Of a stretch of 38,666 nt of DNA, positions 1 through 37,140 are shown piece after piece. Numbering within the stretch: position 1 is the stretch's first letter; each line of letters opens with the position of its first letter. Both the position numbers and the translations under genes were made by a program. The DNA comes from a virus (lineage: Duplodnaviria > Heunggongvirae > Uroviricota > Caudoviricetes): positions 1 through 38,666 of the IMG/VR virus record IMGVR_UViG_2609459854_000001. The stretch is one strand, 5' to 3'. The notes under the pieces were generated by a model, which was not told where the DNA came from, made no database searches, and saw only the letters and a list, made by a program, of their open reading frames with translations.

Positions 1-960
1 TTATGAAAATAAATATGACTTTTTATCCCATAGGATTTGATCATGATTCATTGTTGGGCACTGAAGATCATTTGCTAAGAAAGAAGGATATTTCGTTGTA
101 TTAAAAATGCTTGAGAAATTAGAGTGCATCGGGCTATTAAATATCTCACTCCCATATTGAGCTACGAGTAAAATATGAATGGCAGCTACTGCATTTATTA
201 CAGCGTTAAGAGATGCCTTTTGCTTGTTTGTTCCGCGATTATGCTTAACTGCATTATATGCGTCATACCAAGTCAAACTAGTAGTTGGTTTAGATTCATC
301 CCAACCACTAAATGGGCACCACTCTTGCAAATATGGATAGTAAACGAGCCTCGTAGAATACCCATCTAATTTCAGCAAACCAAGAGATTTAACATAATCG
401 TTAGTACTAAATCTATTGTTGTTAACAGTGTAACCATTATCTGTAAGAAAATTGTGAAGTAAGTATTCAACCTCAGTACATGCAATAATTAATATTTCTC
501 TGATTTTATTACCAAAACAACTCAAATTACCAGTATCAGGATCTATATAGTTAAATAATTCATTTAATGAATCACATATATTATTAAAAGACCTTACTTC
601 ATCAAGGATTCGTGCCTCCGCTATTTGTTGGTTATATAGTTTTGGTTCTCCTCTATTCATTCTAGGGTAGAATATTCCTGCTTCTGTTTTTTTAGATAAA
701 CTGATAACTATAGGTTGGTATGGACAACGATCAAAGCATTGATTCCAAGAAAAATAACCAATCGCCTTTGCTATTTCATCTGTTTTTATTGCATCAGGAT
801 ATGTTTCATTATAGTTATCCTTTCCTCGTTGCCAATGACTCCATTGGTAGTAGGTTACTTTAGGGAATAAACCAGTGTTAATGTATAAAAAACAATCCTC
901 ACCATTGCGTTGAAAAAAGCCAAATACATTTCCTTTCAATTCAAAAGTATAGCTTTCCAT
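1..960 (-). CDS. hypothetical cargo protein (319 aa), function unknown; candidate accessory/defence gene next to the integrase
   Basis: Complete ORF (ATG at 958-960, TAA at 1-3); visibly AT-rich compared with the phage structural genes; no HExxH, P-loop or other motif I recognise; occupies the position where e14 carries lit. Confidence 0.5.
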   Translation of the reverse strand: MESYTFELKGNVFGFFQRNGEDCFLYINTGLFPKVTYYQWSHWQRGKDNYNETYPDAIKTDEIAKAIGYFSWNQCFDRCPYQPIVISLSKKTEAGIFYPRMNRGEPKLYNQQIAEARILDEVRSFNNICDSLNELFNYIDPDTGNLSCFGNKIREILIIACTEVEYLLHNFLTDNGYTVNNNRFSTNDYVKSLGLLKLDGYSTRLVYYPYLQEWCPFSGWDESKPTTSLTWYDAYNAVKHNRGTNKQKASLNAVINAVAAIHILLVAQYGSEIFNSPMHSNFSSIFNTTKYPSFLANDLQCPTMNHDQILWDKKSYLFS

Positions 961-1316: not shown

Positions 1317-2447
1317 TCACAATGCTACTTTGCTCCATCCTTTGCCTCGATCATCATGGTAACGATCGGTCTGCTGTTGTGTTTTATGACCAAGTAATTT
1401 TTGCGTATCTAACCCCTGTTCTTTGTACAGGCGTTCAGATAAAGACCTTTGTTCATGGAATGTGGCAGGTGAGCCATCCCCCCAGTCAATCCCTGCTAAA
1501 TCCCTTGCTTTACTAAAATTCATCGTCAATGTATTGGATTTAATCTGTGCACCACGTTCTGCTTGTGAGGTTGAACGGAAAAAATGCACCAAGTATGGGC
1601 TCACTGCGTAGTCACGGCAGCGAGCTACTACATCTCGTAGGCTCCAATTGATAGCATTCAAACGTAGAGAAAGAGGGATAGCGATTTTGCTTCCAGTCTT
1701 TTCCTGAATGACGTGAAGATGATCCTCCCAAATATCACTAAATTTCATTTTGGATATATCTCCCAAACGCTGCCCAGTGACCAAAGCTAGGAGCATGGCA
1801 TTTCCCATATAACGATGAGTGGCGTCTGCGATATCGAATATTTTTTGCCATTCTTCCAGGCTGAGGCGTTGACGGGTAATTTTCCGTCTGGGTTGCTTCG
1901 TCGCAAGAGCAGGGTTATACCCTGGCGGAACTTCGCCATAATGCTGTGCTTCCTTAAATACATCGATCAATACAGACCTTACGACTTGCGCCATTCTCGG
2001 CTGCCCGGCAGCGATATACTCGTCAAGCAATTGTGCTATATCTCTTACATCAACGGCTGAGATCAACTTCATTCCTGCTCGTTCTCTGAGCAAGGATACT
2101 GGTTTAGCTTTTTGCTTATAGGTGTTGAGTCTTATATCACCACTTTTAAGCCTGTCATCCTGGATCGCTTGATAGCGATCTAACCAGGTTGACGTTGTGA
2201 TAGCCTTTCCTTTGCTGGTTGCGATCCTGTCACTGATAGCCAGAATCTGCCGGGTTCTTTGTTCAGCCAGGCGAGTGTTGGCCTCAGTGGCAATAGCGAT
2301 AGCTTCAGCTTCGTTTGTTCCCAAAGCATGGAATTTTCCTGTTACTGGATGCTTATACCGCCAATAGACTTTATTTACCTTCCTACTATAAAGCGGATAT
2401 AAGTTAGGGACTGAAACATTATTCTTACGCGGTCTGGCTGCCATCAC
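1317..2447 (-). CDS. tyrosine site-specific integrase (lambda Int family)
   Basis: 376-aa ORF with lambda-Int-like N-terminal arm and C-terminal catalytic domain; directly followed by an overlapping Xis-like gene. Confidence 0.9.
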   Translation of the reverse strand: MMAARPRKNNVSVPNLYPLYSRKVNKVYWRYKHPVTGKFHALGTNEAEAIAIATEANTRLAEQRTRQILAISDRIATSKGKAITTSTWLDRYQAIQDDRLKSGDIRLNTYKQKAKPVSLLRERAGMKLISAVDVRDIAQLLDEYIAAGQPRMAQVVRSVLIDVFKEAQHYGEVPPGYNPALATKQPRRKITRQRLSLEEWQKIFDIADATHRYMGNAMLLALVTGQRLGDISKMKFSDIWEDHLHVIQEKTGSKIAIPLSLRLNAINWSLRDVVARCRDYAVSPYLVHFFRSTSQAERGAQIKSNTLTMNFSKARDLAGIDWGDGSPATFHEQRSLSERLYKEQGLDTQKLLGHKTQQQTDRYHDDRGKGWSKVAL

Positions 2448-10263: not shown

Positions 10264-11016
10264 ATGAACCTTGAAGCCTTACCAAAATATTACTCCCCAA
10301 AATCTCCAAAATTGAGCGATGACGCACCGGCGACAGGCTCAGGTGGTTTAACGATTACGGATGTGATGGCTGCGCAGGGGATGGTGCAGTCGAAAGCACC
10401 GCTTGGGTTTGCCTTATTCCTGGCAAAAGTTGGTGTTCAGGATCCTCAGTTTGCGATTGAAGGTCTGCTCAATTACGCGATGGCACTGGATAACCCGACA
10501 TTGAACAAATTGAGTGAAGAAACCCGGTTACAGATCATCCCTTACCTTGTGAATTTTGCCTTTGCTGATTATTCCAGGTCTGCGGCAAGTAAGGCTCGCT
10601 GTGAGCATTGTGCTGGTACTGGATTTCATAATGTATTGCGCGAAGTGGTGAAACACTCCAGAAGCGGGGAATCTGTTATCAAGGAAGAGTGGGTGAAGGA
10701 ACTATGTCAGCATTGCCATGGTAAGGGAGAAGTCAGCACCGCGTGCAGAGGGTGTAAGGGTAAAGGTATTGTCCTGGATGAAAAAAGAACCCGGCTTCAT
10801 GGCACGCCTGTTTATAAGATTTGTGGGCGTTGCAGTGGAAACCGGTTTAGCCGTTTACCAACCACACTGGCGCGGCTTCATGTCCAGAAGCTGGTACCAG
10901 ACCTGACGGATTATCAGTGGTACAAAGGATATGCAGATGTCATTGATAAACTGGTTACAAAGTGCTGGCAGGAGGAAGCTTACGCTGAAGCACAATTGAG
11001 AAGGGTGACGAGATAA
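10264..11016 (+). CDS. late-gene antiterminator (Q-like), putative
   Basis: Last early gene before a hairpin terminator and the lysis cassette; four CxxCxGxG Zn-binding repeats; assignment rests mainly on position. Confidence 0.5.
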   Translation: MNLEALPKYYSPKSPKLSDDAPATGSGGLTITDVMAAQGMVQSKAPLGFALFLAKVGVQDPQFAIEGLLNYAMALDNPTLNKLSEETRLQIIPYLVNFAFADYSRSAASKARCEHCAGTGFHNVLREVVKHSRSGESVIKEEWVKELCQHCHGKGEVSTACRGCKGKGIVLDEKRTRLHGTPVYKICGRCSGNRFSRLPTTLARLHVQKLVPDLTDYQWYKGYADVIDKLVTKCWQEEAYAEAQLRRVTR

Positions 11017-11120
11017 GCGATTTTCGCCGAAGATAATGACATAATACTTTTATTTTTCAAAAAATATGGATAAGATTTTCTCAACGATGGGGCTTGTGTA
11101 TCTATCGTTGAAGAATTTTT

Positions 11121-11150
11121 ACGACCTCGCTATTGCGAGGTTTTTTTATG
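11121..11150 (+). terminator. intrinsic terminator downstream of Q (tR-prime-like)
   Basis: GACCTCGC-TATT-GCGAGGT hairpin followed by TTTTTTT. Confidence 0.6.
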
Positions 11151-11159
11151 GTTTTTTTC

Positions 11160-11195
11160 TATTCAATCTACATCAAAATCAATGTGTTATAATGT
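11160..11195 (+). promoter_or_regulatory. putative promoter with extended -10 (TGTTATAAT) for the moron genes
   Basis: TGnTATAAT element about 40 nt upstream of the ATG at 11231; weak -35; not verified. Confidence 0.3.
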
Positions 11196-11230
11196 TTTCT
11201 GTAAAACAACATTAAAAACAGGAGAACATT

Positions 11231-11500
11231 ATGAAACTGACCTCTATCCATCTTGAAATACTACGTCGAGTGAATGAATTGCAGCCAAAGGATTCTAGAA
11301 TTCAGGCTGCATCATTACCTCATCTCTCAGCAAAAGAGGTTAACTTTGCTATTTCAGATCTTGCTGATATAGGTTTTATCGATGTTATACGAAGCAAATC
11401 TGCCGAAGGTGGATTGATTGCTAATGAGATAACGTCAAAAGGTTTTGCTTTTTTGAGTGAGATTGGCGCTGAAAAAAATTCATCGATGAGCACTCATTGA
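11231..11500 (+). CDS. small hypothetical protein (89 aa), moron gene 1
   Basis: AT-rich ORF with AGGAGA RBS, between the Q terminator and the lysis cassette; possible small winged-helix fold, no firm motif. Confidence 0.5.
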   Translation: MKLTSIHLEILRRVNELQPKDSRIQAASLPHLSAKEVNFAISDLADIGFIDVIRSKSAEGGLIANEITSKGFAFLSEIGAEKNSSMSTH

Positions 11501-11514
11501 TTTCTGCTTCAATC

Positions 11515-11532
11515 GGCTGCCAATTGGCAGCC
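11515..11532. promoter_or_regulatory. perfect 18-bp palindrome ggctgccaattggcagcc between the two moron genes
   Basis: 7-bp arms around AATT; could be a protein-binding site or a terminator-less hairpin. Confidence 0.3.
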
Positions 11533-11697
11533 TAAACTGTAAAGTGAATTTAAAATCGCCTACAATTGATGCTTAAATTTTGTTCTGTATCATCTGCAGG
11601 TTTAGGGATATCACAGTAGCTTTCTGACAAGAAGAGTTCTTTTCTTCTACCAATGAAGTGGTTATGTTAACCTGCGCTAAATCGAGACTGGTGCGGA

Positions 11698-12504
11698 GTG
11701 GAATCGAAAGTGTCATATTTTTACAGAAGCAAGAATATTTCAGGTGTTTCTATAAATGAAGATAGCTTGATTAGCTTAAGCACGGCAATTGTCGAACGCT
11801 GCGTTAAAATGAATGAGCAAGCTCAAAAGGAAAGTAGGGAAGTTTGTGCTCAATGTGTTTTTTTTATTTTGTTCGATGGTAAGGGGTATAAAGTTGATTC
11901 TATCGGTGAGCTTGTGAAATACTTTAGACAGGCCACTAGGATTGATCAAATAATTTTTACTATTGAAACTTATCAAAGTCGACAGTCTAACAGGATGAAT
12001 GGATCTTGGATGGAGCTACGAATTGATGAGAGGAATTCAAATAGCAGCACAATGATTGTAGCATCGGAAGATAATGAGTGGGTTGACTCGTTATGGATTA
12101 CGATTCAGGATTTACTTAACAAGTGCAAAAATAAATTTAGATTTTTTAGAACAGCTTGGACTATGTTAAGTATCCAGATTTCAGGTGTGACAGTTGGCTT
12201 TTTGCTTAGCTTATGGACAGCCTCAAAACTGGCGCCAAAACTATCAATCGATGGTGCATTTGCTTTATCATTTATTTGTATCTTTATTTTGTTTTCGAAC
12301 TTATGGAGCTTTGCTATTCCATTAATAATTAAGCTTATCGACTTTTTGTTTCCTAGTGTTAAGTTTGTTATTAATGGTAAAAATTACTTTCACTGGAGTG
12401 TCCAGGCTATAATTGGAGCGATTGCCAGTGCGGTTATATTGTATTTTATTAGCTCCATGTTGCTTTTTGCATTAGAAATGTTAAATAGCATCATTAAGAA
12501 ATAG
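11698..12504 (+). CDS. hypothetical membrane protein (268 aa; soluble N-terminal domain plus about 3 C-terminal TM helices), moron gene 2
   Basis: AT-rich ORF; hydrophobic segments near residues 160-180, 195-225 and 235-260; start uncertain (track start is GTG; first in-frame ATG at 11809). Confidence 0.5.
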   Translation: MESKVSYFYRSKNISGVSINEDSLISLSTAIVERCVKMNEQAQKESREVCAQCVFFILFDGKGYKVDSIGELVKYFRQATRIDQIIFTIETYQSRQSNRMNGSWMELRIDERNSNSSTMIVASEDNEWVDSLWITIQDLLNKCKNKFRFFRTAWTMLSIQISGVTVGFLLSLWTASKLAPKLSIDGAFALSFICIFILFSNLWSFAIPLIIKLIDFLFPSVKFVINGKNYFHWSVQAIIGAIASAVILYFISSMLLFALEMLNSIIKK

Positions 12505-12537
12505 TTAATGAATTAGTTATAATTACATCAATTCTAT

Positions 12538-12561
12538 GGCTGCCAAATGGTGGCCTTTTTT
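12538..12561 (+). terminator. intrinsic terminator after the moron membrane-protein gene
   Basis: GGCTGCC-AAAT-GGTGGCC hairpin (two G-U pairs) followed by TTTTTT; its stem resembles the palindrome at 11515-11532. Confidence 0.45.
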
Positions 12562-12612
12562 ATTCCTCTCATTTCTATTTCTGAGAGGACTCACTGCAAT
12601 AAGAGGTGGCTA

Positions 12613-12999
12613 ATGTCCGATCCGATTTCCGGCACAGGGTTAGCTGGTGGAGCCCTAACGGGCGCTAGTATTTATGGACTGCTGACCGGAACTGATTACG
12701 GCGTTGTATTTGGCGCATTTGCAGGGGCTTTATTCTACATAGCAACAGCAGCAGATCTGAGTGCATCGCGCCGACTAGCATATTTTATCGTGTCATATAT
12801 TGCCGGGATCCTTTGCTCTGGGTTGGTTGGCTCCAAGCTGGCGAACTTGACCGGATACAGTGATAAACCTCTGGATGCTATTGGTGCCGTAATCGTCTCT
12901 GCTTTAGCCGTTAAAATCCTGACGTTCCTGAATAATCAGGATATCGGCTCGCTGGTGGCGCTCATAACGCGCCGGGGAGGTTCAGGTGGAGCTAAATGA
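12613..12999 (+). CDS. holin
   Basis: ATG at 12613 with AGAGGTGG RBS; small protein with two or three TM segments and a charged C-terminus, immediately upstream of the endolysin. Confidence 0.6.
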   Translation: MSDPISGTGLAGGALTGASIYGLLTGTDYGVVFGAFAGALFYIATAADLSASRRLAYFIVSYIAGILCSGLVGSKLANLTGYSDKPLDAIGAVIVSALAVKILTFLNNQDIGSLVALITRRGGSGGAK

Positions 13000-13267
13000 C
13001 CCGACAGCAACTATAAATGCGCTGTTATGTGCTTGTGTTGTTATTACTCTGATGTTTTATCGTCGTGGCGACTCCAGACATCGACCGTGGATATCTCGCT
13101 TAGCGTGGCTGCTTACGGTCATTTATAGCGCCGTACCGCTGGCGTATCTGTGCGGTATCTACCCTTATTCATCGTGGGCCACTATCGTGGCCAACATTAT
13201 TTTCCTGTCCGTGCTGGTCGCCGTCAGAGGCAATGTGGCACGTCTGGTTGACCATCTGAGGCACTAA
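12986..13267 (+). CDS. second small membrane protein of the lysis cassette (holin/antiholin-like)
   Basis: 93 aa with two or three hydrophobic helices; GTG start with GGAGG RBS; overlaps the holin stop and the endolysin start. Confidence 0.5.
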   Translation: MELNDPTATINALLCACVVITLMFYRRGDSRHRPWISRLAWLLTVIYSAVPLAYLCGIYPYSSWATIVANIIFLSVLVAVRGNVARLVDHLRH

Positions 13268-30532: not shown

Positions 30533-31577
30533 ATTTCAGCGCCCGACGCTGGCAGAAAATATCAGTATGCTCCGTAACGATTTATTCGCCAGGCTGGACG
30601 TCAGCGACACGCTCCGGCGCATGGATGAAGACGTGCGGGCAAAGGTGTATGCGGCGGCGCTGCATACGGTTTACGGGTACATCGATTATCTGGCAATGAA
30701 CATGCTGCCTGACCTGTGCGATGAGTCCTGGCTGGCGCGACATGCTGCGATGAAACGGTGTCCGCGCAAGGGGGCCACGGCTGCCAGCGGGTATATGCGC
30801 TGGGAAGGTGTCAGCGATGGCCTGAAGGTGACCGCCGGAAGTGTTATTCAGCGCGATGACCTGGTTCAGTACACGGCAACTGCCGATGCAACCAGCACCG
30901 GTGGTGTCCTGCGCGTGCCGATCGCCTGCTCAAGTGCAGGCGCGGTCGGTAACGCTGACGACGGTACGTCATTAATCCTGGTCACGCCGGTTAATGGTCT
31001 GCCGTCTTCCGGCGAGGCAGATACCCTGACAGGTGGATTTGATATTGAAGAGCTGGAAACGTGGCGCGCCCGCGTCATTGAGCGGTATTACTGGACGCCT
31101 CAGGGCGGGGCTGACGGGGACTATGTCGTCTGGGCTAAAGAAGTGCCCGGCATTACCCGCGCATGGACATACCGACACTGGATGGGAACGGGGACTGTCG
31201 GTGTGATGATAGCCAGCAGTGACCTGATTAATCCCATTCCGGAAGAATCAACGGAAACGGCGGCAAGACAACATATCGAGCCACTGGCCCCGGTGGCAGG
31301 CTCTGATTTGTATGTGTTCAGGCCGGTGGCACATACGGTGGATTTTCATATCCGTGTGACGCCGGACACACCGGAAATACGGGCTGCCATCACCGCGGAG
31401 TTGCGTTCGTTCCTGCTGCGTGATGGTTATCCGCAGGGAGAACTGAAGGTATCGCGTATCAGTGAGGCGATTTCCGGTGCGAACGGGGAATACAGCCATC
31501 AGTTGCTTGCACCGGCAGACAATATCTCCATTGCAAAAAATGAACTGGCGGTACTGGGGACGATTTCATGGACGTGA
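30519..31577 (+). CDS. baseplate J-like protein (Mu gp47-like)
   Basis: 352 aa; baseplate J family architecture and position. Confidence 0.8.
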
Positions 31578-32152
31578 CAAACGATGATTACATCCGTCTG
31601 TTGTCGGCACTGTTGCCCCCCGGTCCGGCGTGGTCAGCCAGCGATCCGGCGATTGCCGGTGCGGCACCGTCATTATCCCGCGTTCATCAGCGTGCGGATG
31701 CCCTGATGCGGGAGCTGGATCCGCGCACCACCACTGAACTGATAAACCGCTGGGAGCGTCTGTGCGGTCTGCCGGATGAATGTATTCCCGCAGGGACACA
31801 GACCCTTCGCCAGCGTCAGCAACGGCTGGATGCGAAGGTTAACCTGGCGGGCGGCATCAACGAGGATTTTTATCTTGCACAGCTTGCTGCCCTGGGCAGA
31901 CCAGATGCCACCATCACGCGATACGACAAAAGCACGTTCACCTGCTCATCGGCCTGTACTGACGCTGTGAACGCGCCTGAATGGCGGTATTACTGGCAGG
32001 TCAACATGCCAGCCGCCACCAACACCACCTGGATGACATGTGGCGATCCCTGTGATTCCGCACTGCGTATCTGGGGCGACACAGTTGTCGAATGTGTGCT
32101 TAACAAACTCTGCCCGTCGCATACCTACGTAATTTTTAAATATCCGGAGTAA
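31568..32152 (+). CDS. baseplate/tail protein (Mu gp48-like)
   Basis: 194 aa between J-like and tail-fibre genes. Confidence 0.6.
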
Positions 32153-32155
32153 TCC

Positions 32156-32794
32156 ATGCATCGTATAGACACGAAAACCGCGCAGAAGGATAAGTTCGGC
32201 GCGGGTAAGAACGGTTTTACCCGTGGTAACCCCCAGACCGGCACGCCTGCCACCGATCTGGATGATGACTACTTTGACATGTTGCAGGAAGAGCTCTGCA
32301 GCGTGGTGGAGGCATCCGGTGCCAGCCTGGAGAAGGGGCGGCATGACCAGCTGCTTACCGCGCTTCGTGCGCTGCTGTTAAGTCGCAAAAATCCGTTTGG
32401 CGATATCAAATCGGACGGCACGGTGAAAACGGCTCTTCAAAACCTTGGTTTGGGAGAATTATCTCTGGCTGGCACTGCATCGGGTGTCATTGGTCTGAAT
32501 GGGTATGTAACGATTCCGTTAATTATTTCAGGTTCCCGGAGAACACTGATTATTCAGTGGGGGCAGGCGAGATTTGGTGGGTCTGGTGGTGAAGATGCCG
32601 GATATCTTAATGATTTTCCTTTTGCCTTTCCGTCAGCATGTTATGGAATGATAGTTAGTCATGTGGGGCATACACCTTCAGGCGCAGGAATCCTGTCGGC
32701 TTCTGCAATTACATCAAATCAGTTCCGCGGTTTTTCAAGCATAGCGACTGCTGCAAATGCTGTATTAGGTCGTTATATCGCTATAGGGGGTTAA
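32156..32794 (+). CDS. tail fibre protein (constant N-terminal part fused to the currently expressed variable C-terminal cassette)
   Basis: 212 aa; a recombination crossover site lies at codons 94-101 (NLGLGE), so the C-terminal 112 aa is the invertible cassette. Confidence 0.7.
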   Translation: MHRIDTKTAQKDKFGAGKNGFTRGNPQTGTPATDLDDDYFDMLQEELCSVVEASGASLEKGRHDQLLTALRALLLSRKNPFGDIKSDGTVKTALQNLGLGELSLAGTASGVIGLNGYVTIPLIISGSRRTLIIQWGQARFGGSGGEDAGYLNDFPFAFPSACYGMIVSHVGHTPSGAGILSASAITSNQFRGFSSIATAANAVLGRYIAIGG

Positions 32795-32795
32795 T

Positions 32796-33233
32796 ATGTT
32801 TTATAGTCCATCATTAAACATTTTTGTGAATCCTGCGCTTAAGGATGATTACATTAATGCAAATTCATGGCCAGATGATGCTCTGGCTGTCAGTGATGAT
32901 GTTTATAATGAATTTGCAATCAATACGCCCCCATATGACAAAATTCGTGTTGCAGGAAAAAATGGATTACCCACATGGGCACTAATACCTCCACCATCGC
33001 ATGAAGAACTTATTCAACAGGCAGAATCAGAAAGGCAATTATTGCTTAATCAGGCCAACGAATACATGAACAGTAAACAATGGCCCGGTAAAGCCGCTAT
33101 TGGTCGTCTGAAAGACGAGGAACTGGCACTATATAATTTGTGGCTGGATTACCTGGACGCACTGGAACTGGTGGATACCTCCAGTGCTCCAGATATTGAA
33201 TGGCCTACACCTCCGGTAACTCAGGCCAGCTAA
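32796..33233 (+). CDS. tail fibre assembly protein (current orientation)
   Basis: 145 aa directly after the tail fibre; C-terminal ...EWPTPP... is typical of Tfa chaperones. Confidence 0.7.
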   Translation: MFYSPSLNIFVNPALKDDYINANSWPDDALAVSDDVYNEFAINTPPYDKIRVAGKNGLPTWALIPPPSHEELIQQAESERQLLLNQANEYMNSKQWPGKAAIGRLKDEELALYNLWLDYLDALELVDTSSAPDIEWPTPPVTQAS

Positions 33234-33630
33234 TCTCAGGAGCCGTCGAAGTGTCGACGGCTTTTACTTCTTTTTTGTAGTCCATCCAGGCGGATAGTTT
33301 TTCTTTATCTGTACTGCTGATATCACCAAGCATTAATTCCACTCGCCAGTCAGCTGTGACATTATCGGCATGAGCAAGTAACTGCATTCGCTGATTTTCA
33401 GCACGTGCGACATAATCAATCGCCGGAGATTTCAGTACCGGTAAACCATTTTCATCTGACGTGATTAATTTACCCCCTTCCTGCTGTCCGGCAATTAATT
33501 CATTGTATAAGTCTGTACTTATCTCAACAATGTCAGCAGGCATGTCGCTGTTTATACCATCAAAGAAAAAACCATTAGTCGATTTTGAGAAATAAATCAT
33601 AGATATACCTATACACCGATTGCTACCCAA
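33205..33630 (-). CDS. alternative tail fibre assembly protein (inverted orientation)
   Basis: 141 aa on the opposite strand, convergent with the first Tfa; C-terminal ...ISWPELPEV. Confidence 0.65.
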   Translation of the reverse strand: MGSNRCIGISMIYFSKSTNGFFFDGINSDMPADIVEISTDLYNELIAGQQEGGKLITSDENGLPVLKSPAIDYVARAENQRMQLLAHADNVTADWRVELMLGDISSTDKEKLSAWMDYKKEVKAVDTSTAPEISWPELPEV

Positions 33631-33986
33631 AAACAGGACCTTTCATATTTGACAATTTCTCCCTGAGATATACCGCCAACAATTATATAGAACTGTGATT
33701 TGGTGATATCAGAACAGTTCGCAATGCCCATTGCAGATATACCAGCCAACGACGTTGTATGTGGCACAGCCAACAGCGCAAGTGAACGATTTGGGAATGT
33801 TACCGGGTAAGTCACCGTATAGTTTGATGCTCCACTGACAATACCCCACTGAATAATCAGACCTGAAGGGAGTTTTTGAAAACCCGTTGATGAAAGTGAA
33901 CTGGCAAACGCCGCCATATCCGGAATTTGGTTTTGCCCGTTACCTACATTCCGTTTTGCCGCTTCTCCCAAACCAACGTTTATGAA
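33609..33986 (-). CDS. alternative promoterless tail-fibre C-terminal cassette (Sv-prime-like)
   Basis: Minus-strand frame reads ...FINVGLGE... across the crossover site and continues 120 codons; would fuse to the constant fibre N-terminus after inversion. Confidence 0.55.
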   Translation of the reverse strand, partial: FINVGLGEAAKRNVGNGQNQIPDMAAFASSLSSTGFQKLPSGLIIQWGIVSGASNYTVTYPVTFPNRSLALLAVPHTTSLAGISAMGIANCSDITKSQFYIIVGGISQGEIVKYERSCFWVAIGV

Positions 33987-34042
33987 AATGCAGAAATAAC
34001 GAGAAAATGGCATCATTCCTGCTTTTGTCAGAGGGAGCTACC

Positions 34043-34234
34043 ATGCTTATTGGCTATGTTTGCGTATCAACAAATGACCAGAAAATCGATCTACAACGTA
34101 ATGCGTTTAACTGTGCAGGATGCGAGCTGATTTTTGAAGACAAGATAAGCGGTACAAAGTCCGAGAGCCTAGGGCTGACAGTGCTGTTCTTGATGCAAAT
34201 TAAAGGATTTAATAGTGAGTTGCGGCCTTACTAA
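34043..34234 (+). pseudogene. truncated Gin/Hin/Pin-family serine DNA invertase (N-terminal ~50 codons only)
   Basis: MLIGYVCVSTNDQKIDLQRNAFNCAGCELIFEDKISGTK... matches the invertase N-terminus including the catalytic Ser, then diverges and stops; the rest is replaced by the 3' end of the convergent DUF262/DUF1524 gene. Confidence 0.7.
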
Positions 34235-34267
34235 TGTAAGGCCGCTATAATCATTTTATTAATTGCA

Positions 34268-36157
34268 TTAATCGTATTTTGGCCATACTTTCAATGCAAT
34301 TTCCCCCAACTTTTTACCTCGCTCCAGTATTTCACTCTCATCCCATTTATCCTTAAGTATAAGTGGTATGTTCAGTCGTAGATTGGTGTGGACGATGAGA
34401 GCATCACGTTTTTTCAGAAATACAGCATTCTGAACGGAACGGTTTACGCTAAGGTTAAGCAAAGTTAGATTTCCCAACGTAGCTATCGCTTGTTGCCGTT
34501 TCCTTACCAGTAGCTGTTCAGGGGTAAGATCGGTTCCAGACAGAACAATTTGGTTCATTACCGTAGCATCTGAATTTGTCACCATATGACCATTTTCGAG
34601 AGGCCAACAGGAATACCAACTTTGAGGCATAAGATGATCGATATCGAGATTAGAAAGATTTGGAACATCAGGCTTTTCTGTCTTCACTTGGCGACAAAGT
34701 TCTCTTTCAAGTTCCGTTAACATTGAGCGCATTTTCGGTGCGTCGAGCCTGCCAGGATAAAGTGGAGCATTGATGCAAGCGTTGAGAAATTCTGAGTCCC
34801 CAGGCCAACGTGAGGCTTCGCCATTTAAGCTATTGAGGATATTACGTAACTCAACACTGGAAATTTCCGTTTTAGACAAGTGTCGCAATACATTCATAAA
34901 TACATTGTTGTAATTCTTTGGCGTCAGGCCACATACGGATCTTCGTACTACGTAGGAGACAAGATCATTATACATGGCTGCTTTCTCATCATCGGCGATG
35001 TTAGCTATCGAAATGAACAAAGCAAGCGGATAGAGTGTCGTCACATCATAGGCTGCGATGCGATGTCTAAAGTGTGAGATGGGGGTTGTGCCAAAACCAC
35101 CAACCAATTCTTTATATTGTGATGCATATTGTTTGAGGCGCTTTACTTGCAGATCTGCTCGTTGTGAAGGCAAGTCCTTACTTACATAATCACGATACTC
35201 ATTGTAAAGGCGAGACAGATCAATTTCACGCTGCCTTTCTGATTGCAATGTCGCATGTACAAGCCACTCCATGCGTGGTTTATTAATACGTCCACGGCGT
35301 TGCTTTTCCGACCAGTATTTATCTTCAAAGATCTTCCACTCATTTTCATATAATTCAATAGCATTAATATTTTCATGCTCAGCGCACATAAAGATATAGT
35401 TGCGAATAAGATCCGTTGCATGAAGTTCCGCTCCTCGCCCATTTAATGTTTCAAAAATTATTTGGGCATCATCTTCAGCTTCGAGAAATATGCTTACCAG
35501 TTTCAGATCCGTCAAGACAGCCTCAATTAGTGCTACAGCATTTTCTTGTGGTGAGTGTTTTTCTATTTTAATCCATTTTATAAAGGCTTCAGTAAAAAAC
35601 CATAATGCCTCTAGTGACGGCGGGTGGTTGAAATGTTTACGTAACGTACCATGTTGCGTGAAGCTATCAGAAAATACATTACGGAGATCGTCAATATTAT
35701 CAACATTAAGACTTTGAATAAAATGAGTTTGATCTCGAAAAGTTGGCCACAGTTTGAAGCATTCTACCTTTTTATTTCTCATCGTTGCTTCGTTTGTATT
35801 TTTCAAGCAAGTCAATACTAACCCTTCCAGTTCAGAAAGGCCTGTAGCACGCAATGATAATCGAATGGATGCCAGAATATATTGAAGAGTGGTTAAACGT
35901 TGCTGGCCGTCAATAATATGTATGGTATCTACACCTAACAAGCTGTTTTTGAGTTGAGGTTCCAGCACCACCGCGCCGAGGAAATGAGGGGTTGGTTTTG
36001 TTCCCGAAAGTCGGCTCTGTGCTTTTTCGAAGATATCCTCCAACAAAGCTGACCATTGGTTTCGTTGCGTCCATACGTAGGCACGTTGATAGAATGGAAC
36101 ACGATATTGTCGTTGATTTTGGAAAATTTGCTGGATGGTTAGCGTTTCGGATTTCAT
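34268..36157 (-). CDS. DUF262/DUF1524 (GmrSD-like) type IV restriction endonuclease
   Basis: 629 aa; N-terminal ...FYQRAYVWT...IIDGQQRLTTL... (DUF262 DGQQR motif) and C-terminal ...DIDHLMPQSW...GNLTLLNLSVNRS... (DUF1524 His-Me finger); AT-rich; AGGTAA RBS. Confidence 0.8.
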   Translation of the reverse strand: MKSETLTIQQIFQNQRQYRVPFYQRAYVWTQRNQWSALLEDIFEKAQSRLSGTKPTPHFLGAVVLEPQLKNSLLGVDTIHIIDGQQRLTTLQYILASIRLSLRATGLSELEGLVLTCLKNTNEATMRNKKVECFKLWPTFRDQTHFIQSLNVDNIDDLRNVFSDSFTQHGTLRKHFNHPPSLEALWFFTEAFIKWIKIEKHSPQENAVALIEAVLTDLKLVSIFLEAEDDAQIIFETLNGRGAELHATDLIRNYIFMCAEHENINAIELYENEWKIFEDKYWSEKQRRGRINKPRMEWLVHATLQSERQREIDLSRLYNEYRDYVSKDLPSQRADLQVKRLKQYASQYKELVGGFGTTPISHFRHRIAAYDVTTLYPLALFISIANIADDEKAAMYNDLVSYVVRRSVCGLTPKNYNNVFMNVLRHLSKTEISSVELRNILNSLNGEASRWPGDSEFLNACINAPLYPGRLDAPKMRSMLTELERELCRQVKTEKPDVPNLSNLDIDHLMPQSWYSCWPLENGHMVTNSDATVMNQIVLSGTDLTPEQLLVRKRQQAIATLGNLTLLNLSVNRSVQNAVFLKKRDALIVHTNLRLNIPLILKDKWDESEILERGKKLGEIALKVWPKYD

Positions 36158-36413
36158 TGTTTACCTATAAATAACATTAAGTGACATTCCACAAGAGTAA
36201 GAAATTCATCTGAGTCAGAACAATCATTTTTATGTAGTTATGATACAGTGTATTTGTTACTGGTGAAGTAAAAATAAGAAACCCCGCTTTTGAATGCTGA
36301 CGCGCTACGGTTTCATTGGATATTTTTTGTCTCTCCTCCATCCCGTTGGTGTTCTGTTTAGACTGATAACTTGCTGTTTTAATTGATATTAGTTTCTTGC
36401 GCCGCCCAATCAT

Positions 36414-36439
36414 GGTTGGTGGGTTGGTGGGTTGGTGGG
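36414..36439 (+). repeat. G-rich tandem repeat (GGTTGGTG)x3
   Basis: ggttggtgggttggtgggttggtggg in the AT-rich region upstream of the restriction gene; four GG/GGG tracts. Confidence 0.4.
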
Positions 36440-36975
36440 AGTTAAATCCACATTGGTATGAATAACATAGAATATGAATTAGTGTTTCAGAATTGCTTCA
36501 GCCATCACTTTTTAATACGTTCAATTTGAATGTTTATTTCCGAAACAATTTTTTCAGGTTTCAGTCCCTCGTTAGATTGCACAAAATCTCTAATTTGCAT
36601 CATTCGATGTGCACAAATTTGTAATTCGCTATAAACACTTAGCTCGTCAGATTCATTTTGAGATTGTTCACCTGTTTAAAATTCTACATAAGTATGTGGC
36701 GGATTGTGATAAACACGAGAAATCGGGGTTGGCCACCATTCCTCACCGGTCACTACGTCCGCATCGAATAGTACAGTTTTGTCAATTTCCATTAATTTCT
36801 GGATAAGAACAGAAGTTTTCAAGCGAACCTCCATTTTGCCATAAAGTGGTTATCAAAACGCTACGTAAACTATACAAAATCAGCGAGTTATGGTGAAGGT
36901 AAAAAAACAAGTTTAGATGTTCGTTAAGTATAAAATTGTTTTAATTCAATTGGATATAATAATTTTCTAAATCTA

Positions 36976-37140
36976 ATGTTACGCCATATGGGTTGGACTG
37001 AAGCGGCTGACCTGATTGTTAAAGGTATGGAAGGCGCAATCAATGCGAAGACCGTAACCTATGACTTCGAGCGTCTGATGGAAGGCGCTAAACTGCTGAA
37101 ATGTTCAGAATTTGGTGATGCGATCATCAAGAACATGTAA
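36976..37140 (+). pseudogene. icdC: orphan 3' fragment of isocitrate dehydrogenase gene (icdC-like), marking the prophage right attachment site
   Basis: Encodes [54 protein letters not shown], recognisable as the Icd C-terminus, with no upstream icd body; 165 nt, the length replaced on e14 integration. Confidence 0.75.

Follow-up and report, generated by a model that had tools for sequence, protein, structure and literature searches.

A tail-fibre inversion segment of the e14 type that still flips in Escherichia coli genomes bearing a truncated pin gene

The stretch of DNA considered here is a 38,666-bp record assigned to the Caudoviricetes (IMG/VR record IMGVR_UViG_2609459854_000001, positions 1 to 38,666; hereafter the window), and towards its right end lies an invertible tail-fibre segment bordered by a truncated copy of the invertase gene pin. 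On sequence grounds we identify this locus as the P segment of the E. coli prophage e14, the system of the PinE invertase (Plasterk & van de Putte 1985; Mehta et al. 2004; both cited in PMC4272514), which phase-varies in cultures of MG1655 (PMC4272514). An earlier note, made from the letters of the window alone, did not recognise this identity and described the switch as frozen by the loss of its invertase. The genome comparisons reported here contradict that description. The invertase gene is indeed dead, but the segment is not frozen: it still flips in nature in genomes that carry the same pin stub.

Orientation of the segment among stub-bearing genomes

Two clonal chicken-meat isolates from Gifu, 22-250 and 22-245, with chromosomes of 5,073,329 and 5,073,334 bp, respectively, carry the same stub at the same coordinates and differ in the orientation of the segment. 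The 3.3-kb flanks on each side are identical in the two isolates, and the 1,528 bp between the crossover cores of one are the exact reverse complement of those of the other. The inversion junctions are confined to 14 bp that hold the core of the Din family of invertases (Hin, Gin, Cin and Pin). In a 50-kb region located 2.5 Mb away, the two chromosomes differ at 2 nucleotides, both in tuf. The inversion that sets the isolates apart is recent, runs precisely from site to site and took place in a lineage that lacks pin. As for the two tuf differences (near positions 31184 and 31541 of the compared region), they fit gene conversion between tufA and tufB or polishing between the paralogues.

Both orientations are also well represented among complete E. 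coli genomes at large. The right-hand junction was queried with 277 bp of segment end, crossover site, stub and the beginning of the GmrSD region that replaces the remainder of pin (see below), and 80% coverage of this query is unreachable for genomes with an intact pin gene. Seventeen of the genomes with the stub junction have the segment in the window orientation and 16 have it in the inverse. In a sister cassette family of the UTI89 type, which has the same stub, the corresponding numbers are 79 and 67, and the junctions are 100% identical across the split. Close relatives stand on opposite sides of it, for example UTI89, S88, NU14 and APEC O18 on one and IHE3034, APEC O1 and PMV-1 on the other.

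Of the genomes in the collection, CFSAN061769, isolated from raw milk cheese in Egypt (NZ_CP042969.1, positions 2800474-2839139), is most closely related to the window, and it has the segment inverted relative to the window. The two sequences differ by 7 single-nucleotide polymorphisms in the 36.4 kb outside the segment (99.98% flank identity) and by an insertion or deletion near 36440, and once the CFSAN061769 segment is re-inverted it differs from that of the window by one base. Both orientations therefore occur with their endpoints at the crossover sites, the comparison being one between genomes and not within one culture. The switch region of the window is 100% identical to that of OkiPb01685 instead of CFSAN061769, and at the sequence level this pattern of matches suggests mosaicism within the prophage.

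Crossover sites

A repeat search of the window returned inverted arms at 32440-32458 and 33963-33981 (19 nucleotides, 95% complementary). The pattern TTCTCCCAAACCAASGTTT, with up to 3 mismatches allowed, has exactly 2 matches in the 38.7-kb window; the expectation from shuffled sequence is 0.06, and none of 100 shuffles reached 2. The full 26-bp sites (12+2+12) were set by register with the crossover points annotated in the GenBank records of Mu and P1. On this basis the left, pix-type site spans 32433-32458 with a TT core at 32445-46 and lies inside fibre codons 93-101, where it encodes the NLGLGE junction, and the right, pix-type site spans 33963-33988 with an AA core at 33975-76. The right site reads TTCTCCCAAACC AA CGTTTATGAAAA (33963-33988) and the left site, on the bottom strand, reads TTCTCCCAAACC AA GGTTTTGAAGAG (32458-32433). 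The two 2-bp cores are identical and inverted relative to each other, and the symmetry between half-sites (8-9 of 12 positions) is like that of gix and cix.

The right site is identical to the pinE-proximal site of K-12 at all 26 positions, and the left site matches the distal K-12 site at 24/26 and Mu gix and P1 cix at 18-20/26. Taken together, the window sites match the annotated gix and cix sites at 17-20/26, with the invariant positions TTC....AAACC.A.GT.T...A. These alignments to the genuine e14, gix and cix sites bear out the hix/gix-like character that the earlier note had seen in the sites and had made a condition of its reading. Its count of two mismatches over 23-24 bp holds when one gap is introduced; in an ungapped alignment it does not, and the outer half-sites differ more.

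The segment contains a second inverted repeat, a perfect match of 17 nucleotides (32546-32562 and 33844-33860) that lies within both fibre tips and encodes their common motif, LIIQWG.

The pin remnant and its enhancer-homologous stretch

The pin remnant is an open reading frame (ORF) at 34043-34234 on the plus strand, consisting of PinE codons 1 to ~46 followed by 17 unrelated codons and a stop at 34232-34234. Nucleotide homology to pinE runs from 34043 to ~34178, tblastn gives a match to PinE residues 1-49 at 82% identity, and the Pfam Resolvase profile covers stub residues 3-47 alone (profile positions 2-54 of 145). The greater part of the catalytic domain is missing, as is all of the DNA-binding domain. 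Relative to PinE, the stub carries the substitutions R7C, N14K, T15I and L22F, the first of which falls in the conserved YxRVS motif that holds the catalytic serine. The Prokaryotic Genome Annotation Pipeline (PGAP) labels the stub in identical genomes as 'recombinase family protein, incomplete, missing C-terminus'. No intact serine invertase with a catalytic domain and a C-terminal helix-turn-helix adjoins the segment, and a tblastn search over the window with PinE found no invertase besides the stub. The pin gene is dead and no invertase is made in cis, much as the earlier note had concluded from an N-terminal remnant that it put at ~50 codons. The locus is an orphan Din-family substrate and not a complete system, the intact invertase being the one defining feature that is missing; as a substrate it shows all the sequence-level features for which it was examined.

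A stretch homologous to the recombinational enhancer of P1 cin lies wholly inside the stub. The P1 GenBank record places the cin enhancer at cin nucleotides 19-90, and its counterpart in the window (34061-34132) is identical to pinE at 66 of 72 positions. Two predicted Fis sites within it, 15-mers of the form G-N13-C at 34064-34078 and 34113-34127, are both unchanged from pinE and presumably correspond to the two Fis sites, one proximal and one distal, in the Hin enhancer. The first putative Fis site is centred ~95 bp from the right crossover site; in Salmonella, the proximal Fis site is ~100 bp away from hixL (PMC3798978). From these matches in sequence and spacing we infer that the retained stub may act as an enhancer. 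Relative to pinE, the window lineage has changed at 6 of the 72 enhancer positions and at 8 of the 66 others that were compared, which is no clear excess of conservation, and a single truncation event is unable to show selection on the stub endpoint.

Fibre tips, chaperones and the in-frame swap

The tail-fibre gene (32156-32794, plus strand) encodes a 212-residue homologue of StfP/YcfK, with a PHROG tail fibre match over residues 1-113 and Pfam Gp53-like_C over residues 131-211, and is syntenic with K-12 ycfK/stfP downstream of ymfQ. The constant N-terminal part of the fibre ends at the core at 32445-46, and the currently expressed tip, Sv, is encoded by 32459-32794. The Tfa chaperone gene of this tip follows on the same strand (32796-33233; Pfam Caudo_TAP, E = 1.8e-33). 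Facing these genes on the minus strand are the gene for Tfa′, the chaperone of the alternative tip (33205-33600, with the ORF extending to 33630; Caudo_TAP, E = 2.2e-24), which has 131 residues in the PGAP annotation of identical genomes, and the alternative tip itself, contained in an StfE-like ORF of 135 residues (33609-34016; Gp53-like_C, E = 1.4e-15). A terminator-like hairpin, with a 12-pair stem followed by a T tract, is located between the convergent tfa genes (33238-33265). The alternative tip, Sv′, occupies 33609-33962 of the StfE-like ORF, whose start codon (ATG at 34016) is outside the segment in the pin leader, and the ORF reads from there across the right site. This ORF is the counterpart of K-12 stfE; it has 135 residues in the present orientation and 129 once inverted.

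The core falls in fibre codon 97 (CTT) and in a GTT codon of the StfE-like ORF, and the junction peptides differ accordingly, the fibre having NLGLGE and the StfE-like ORF NVGLGE. Inversion of the window in silico gives an in-frame fibre of 218 residues that is identical to the annotated protein in 22-245 and CFSAN061769. The outline given in the earlier note, in which two inverted crossover sites bracket two fibre tips and two opposed Tfa genes and share an NxGLGE junction peptide that permits an in-frame swap, is thus confirmed by the repeat search, by the Gp53-like_C and Caudo_TAP matches and by the annotated 218-residue protein.

A promoter scan of 31900-34400 found fewer promoter-like sites than in shuffled sequences and gave no usable candidate for either the StfE-like ORF or the pin stub. 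For K-12 stfE, the inverted chimera StfE2 was reported in 2025 to block adsorption of phage T2 (PMC12529663), and the second cassette may therefore not be silent. By analogy with K-12, the switch may also toggle a host-defence protein.

Replacement of the 3′ end of pin

The DNA beyond the stub is occupied by a gene on the minus strand for a GmrSD-type (DUF262/DUF1524) protein of 629 residues (34268-36157; Pfam GmrSD_N, E = 1.4e-33, and GmrSD_C, E = 3.8e-19). It matches the PADLOC mREase_IV model over its full length (1516 bits) and has both domains in one polypeptide, and we regard the product as a predicted type IV restriction enzyme. The gene sits in the mcrA slot of K-12 e14, where an intact pinE is followed by mcrA, also encoding a type IV enzyme. 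The replacement, which extends over 34179-36157, removed the 3′ three-quarters of pin and left novel junction DNA between the stub and the 3′ end of the GmrSD gene, including a GC-rich hairpin, GCGGCCTTAC-N4-GTAAGGCCGC, at 34222-34245.

The stub junction is identical in every stub-bearing genome aligned (22-250, UTI89, BE2-5 and YF-1, the last three with an extra 1-bp deletion), and this common junction sequence indicates one old replacement event. The GmrSD gene is present with at least 90% identity in ~330 of 5,426 complete E. coli genomes. In some of its carriers the prophage is not beside the icd fragment that borders it in the window: in UTI89 its neighbours are DinI-like and GIY-YIG genes, and in BE2-5 and YF-1 the neighbour is ydfV.

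Source of the inversion activity

Pin, Gin, Cin and Hin complement one another. For inversion by these Din-family enzymes, a DNA molecule must carry a pair of sites whose cores match and, in cis to them, an enhancer bound by Fis (PMC3798978). We propose that the locus is a Pin-type invertible host-range segment, in which inversion between the 26-bp sites would swap the C-terminal tip of the short fibre in frame and bring the matching Tfa gene into the expressed orientation. An old replacement placed the GmrSD gene at the mcrA position and deleted pin from ~codon 46 onward, while the needs in cis, namely the pair of sites, matched in their cores, and the part of 5′ pin that corresponds to the Fis-dependent enhancer, were kept; the segment therefore remains a substrate that is short of the enzyme alone. 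Flipping would be done in trans by a serine invertase encoded elsewhere, either the Pin/Gin/Cin-type enzyme of another prophage or possibly one of the PinQ or PinR type, and in a host without a suitable invertase the segment would be static. For the P segment of e14, inversion in trans has been reported for PinQ, an invertase encoded by prophage Qin (PMC12529663). We consider it probable that the locus as a whole is explained in this way, as an e14-type orphan segment flipped by invertases from co-resident elements, and the flipping itself is most probably the work of a trans-acting invertase. The earlier note, having called the switch locked, had added that an invertase acting in trans might operate it, and in our judgement this hedge was correct.

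The presence of further invertases was assessed in chromosomes, at blastn sensitivity, with chimeric queries joining the GmrSD marker to the 3′ parts of invertase genes, a test that gives neither position nor intactness. In each of the chromosomes of 22-245 and 22-250, this test detected 2 additional places with a match to the C-terminal two-thirds of pinE/gin/cin and 1 with a match to pinQ. Another genome, 23CRST035, has the stub locus and, in addition, a copy of this cassette in a P2-like prophage, where it is accompanied by an intact recombinase of 188 residues. In that P2-like copy (NZ_AP045805.1, 3242865-3249602), the cassette has the fibre gene H on one side and the sheath gene on the other and encodes identical Tfa proteins (WP_001526915 and WP_000639074). 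Together with its sites, the cassette behaves as a module that passes from one tail type to another, unrelated one.

Several observations weigh against a supply of invertase from co-resident elements. First, the extra invertase-like places in 22-245 and 22-250 are still only candidates. Second, the chimeric queries found no further chromosomal Din-type place in A8, A42, S87, CFSAN061769, S88, ATCC 11775 or PMV-1, nor any chromosomal PinQ-type place in A8, A42, S87 or CFSAN061769, and both orientations are present among these genomes, though they may have carried an invertase in the past. A search of genome contigs with PinE, which returned 80 Enterobacterales loci but none from ATCC 11775, the stub-bearing type strain of E. 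coli, has no bearing on the trans enzyme. Third, in one sequence subgroup, 12 genomes with near-identical junctions have the segment in one orientation. With most of the tightest subgroup oriented alike, flipping is occasional relative to strain divergence and not so fast that orientation is random for each assembly. Fourth, a K-12 pinE deletion mutant was reported to be locked despite its chromosomal pinQ and pinR genes (PMC12529663). That deletion would also have removed the enhancer region, and the locked state fits a need for the enhancer in cis and equally fits a need for PinE itself.

The same facts can be read as the signs of a frozen relic, in which the segment is locked in this host and the polymorphism stems from the past presence of an invertase or from import of the region by recombination. 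The pin gene is unquestionably dead and the window has no other invertase; CFSAN061769, with neither a Din-type nor a PinQ-type place elsewhere on its chromosome, the 12 like-oriented genomes of one subgroup and the locked pinE mutant point the same way. A relic is nevertheless hard to reconcile with the clonal pair 22-245 and 22-250, which differ by a precise site-to-site inversion, with the 17:16 and 79:67 splits, all of which postdate the single common truncation, and with the inversion of the window relative to so close a neighbour as CFSAN061769. We regard it as unlikely, though it deserves to be kept in view. Doubtful, too, is the conjunction of four further proposals, namely that the stub has been kept in hundreds of E. 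coli genomes as a cis enhancer, that the switch has been domesticated under host control beside the restriction gene, that it is flipped by a recombinase not closely related to Pin, Gin or Cin, and that it toggles the StfE-like protein and not virion host range. The distant recombinase enters this combination because both orientations occur in genomes without a detectable second chromosomal Din-type invertase.

Some of the flipped genomes have no detectable second chromosomal invertase, and for these it might be supposed that no invertase is involved, the segment being inverted by rare RecA-dependent or replication template-switch recombination between short inverted repeats. However, the usable homology is 19-26 bp, far below that of efficient RecA substrates, and the junctions lie inside the 14 bp with the Din core. 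The perfect 17-nucleotide repeat within the fibre tips is a match in length for the usable homology of the crossover sites, but in none of the three inverted genomes of the window type that were examined (including 22-245 and CFSAN061769) did the inversion end there, and the near 1:1 ratio of orientations among close relatives points to a catalysed reaction. Recombination of this kind is very improbable. That the opposite orientations are choices made by the assembler, an idea favoured by nothing specific beyond the single consensus orientation that assemblies give, can be set aside, as the 26-bp repeats are far shorter than any read and so would cause no misjoin, the genes are intact and in frame in both orientations, and the presence of both kinds of read in one sample would itself demonstrate inversion.

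Prophage setting

The host element is a structurally complete e14-family prophage integrated at icd in E. coli. It fills almost the whole window, with the switch region at its right end, and has the features by which members of the e14 family are recognised: a lambda-type integrase (intE, 1317-2447, minus strand), a duplication of the icd 3′ end at the right end (icd′, 36973-37140, followed by iraM) and ymf synteny, ymfK, ymfL, ymfT, ymfR and ymfQ all being in the window. The last of these (31568-32152) is upstream of the fibre gene, and the order ymfQ-stf-tfa-tfa′-stf′-pin-(restriction gene)-icd′-iraM agrees with that of K-12 e14. The early genes are lambdoid, and the structural set includes terminase, portal, protease, HK97-type capsid, sheath, tube, tape measure and a Mu/P2-like baseplate.

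Three stretches, at 1-960 (minus strand), 11000-13000 and 36158-36972, have a GC content of 32-41%, compared with ~55% in the structural genes. They lie at the two ends of the prophage and downstream of the Q antiterminator, and their ORFs are probably cargo (moron) genes; PADLOC gave zero matches for the low-GC ORFs at 1-960, 11698-12999 and 36177-36413.

Implications and comparison with known systems

The locus corrects an easy inference in annotation, namely that a switch must be locked once its invertase is dead. A fibre segment of the invertible kind can remain polymorphic after the loss of its recombinase, presumably with the help of enzymes from other mobile elements in the same cell, and orphan segments should accordingly be scored as potentially active in phage and host-range prediction and in inverton surveys. 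In principle, the service of orphan substrates in trans was already known; the modest novelty lies in population evidence for the continued flipping of a widespread stub-bearing variant. The ~180 complete genomes in the two cassette families offer a natural test bed for cross-talk between prophage invertases and for the question whether the 5′ stub survives on account of an enhancer within it. Beyond these points, the locus is a variant of a textbook system.

The closest of the known systems is the P segment of K-12 e14, which shares with the window the icd integration site, the gene order, the crossover sites (26/26 for the pin-proximal and 24/26 for the distal site) and, in the remaining 5′ part of pin, 90% nucleotide identity. 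The differences are that pin is cut here at ~codon 46 and carries R7C, that mcrA has been exchanged for the GmrSD-type enzyme, that the segment encodes gp53-like tips with Tfa proteins of 145 and 131 residues where K-12 has its tfaP, tfaE and stfE alleles, and that the prophage is full length, at least 37 kb, whereas K-12 retains a 15-kb remnant.

The G segment of Mu with Gin and the C segment of P1 with Cin resemble the window in having two inverted 26-bp sites, an in-frame swap of the fibre C-terminus, opposed S/U and S′/U′ cassettes and an enhancer, or in the window an enhancer-homologous stretch, in the 5′ end of the invertase gene. The window differs from both in the sequence of its sites (17-20/26 identity), in its much shorter fibre and in the lack of a functional invertase in cis.

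In the proposed use of a segment by the invertase of a different prophage, the likeness is to PinQ of Qin acting on e14 and to Fin acting on the Salmonella H segment; Fin, an enzyme of Fels-2, is said to have been found to act there by Kutsukake and colleagues (2006; cited in PMC4272514). Both examples concern segments whose cognate invertase is present as well or has been taken out by experiment, whereas in the locus described here its loss is natural, old and common to ~330 complete E. coli genomes.

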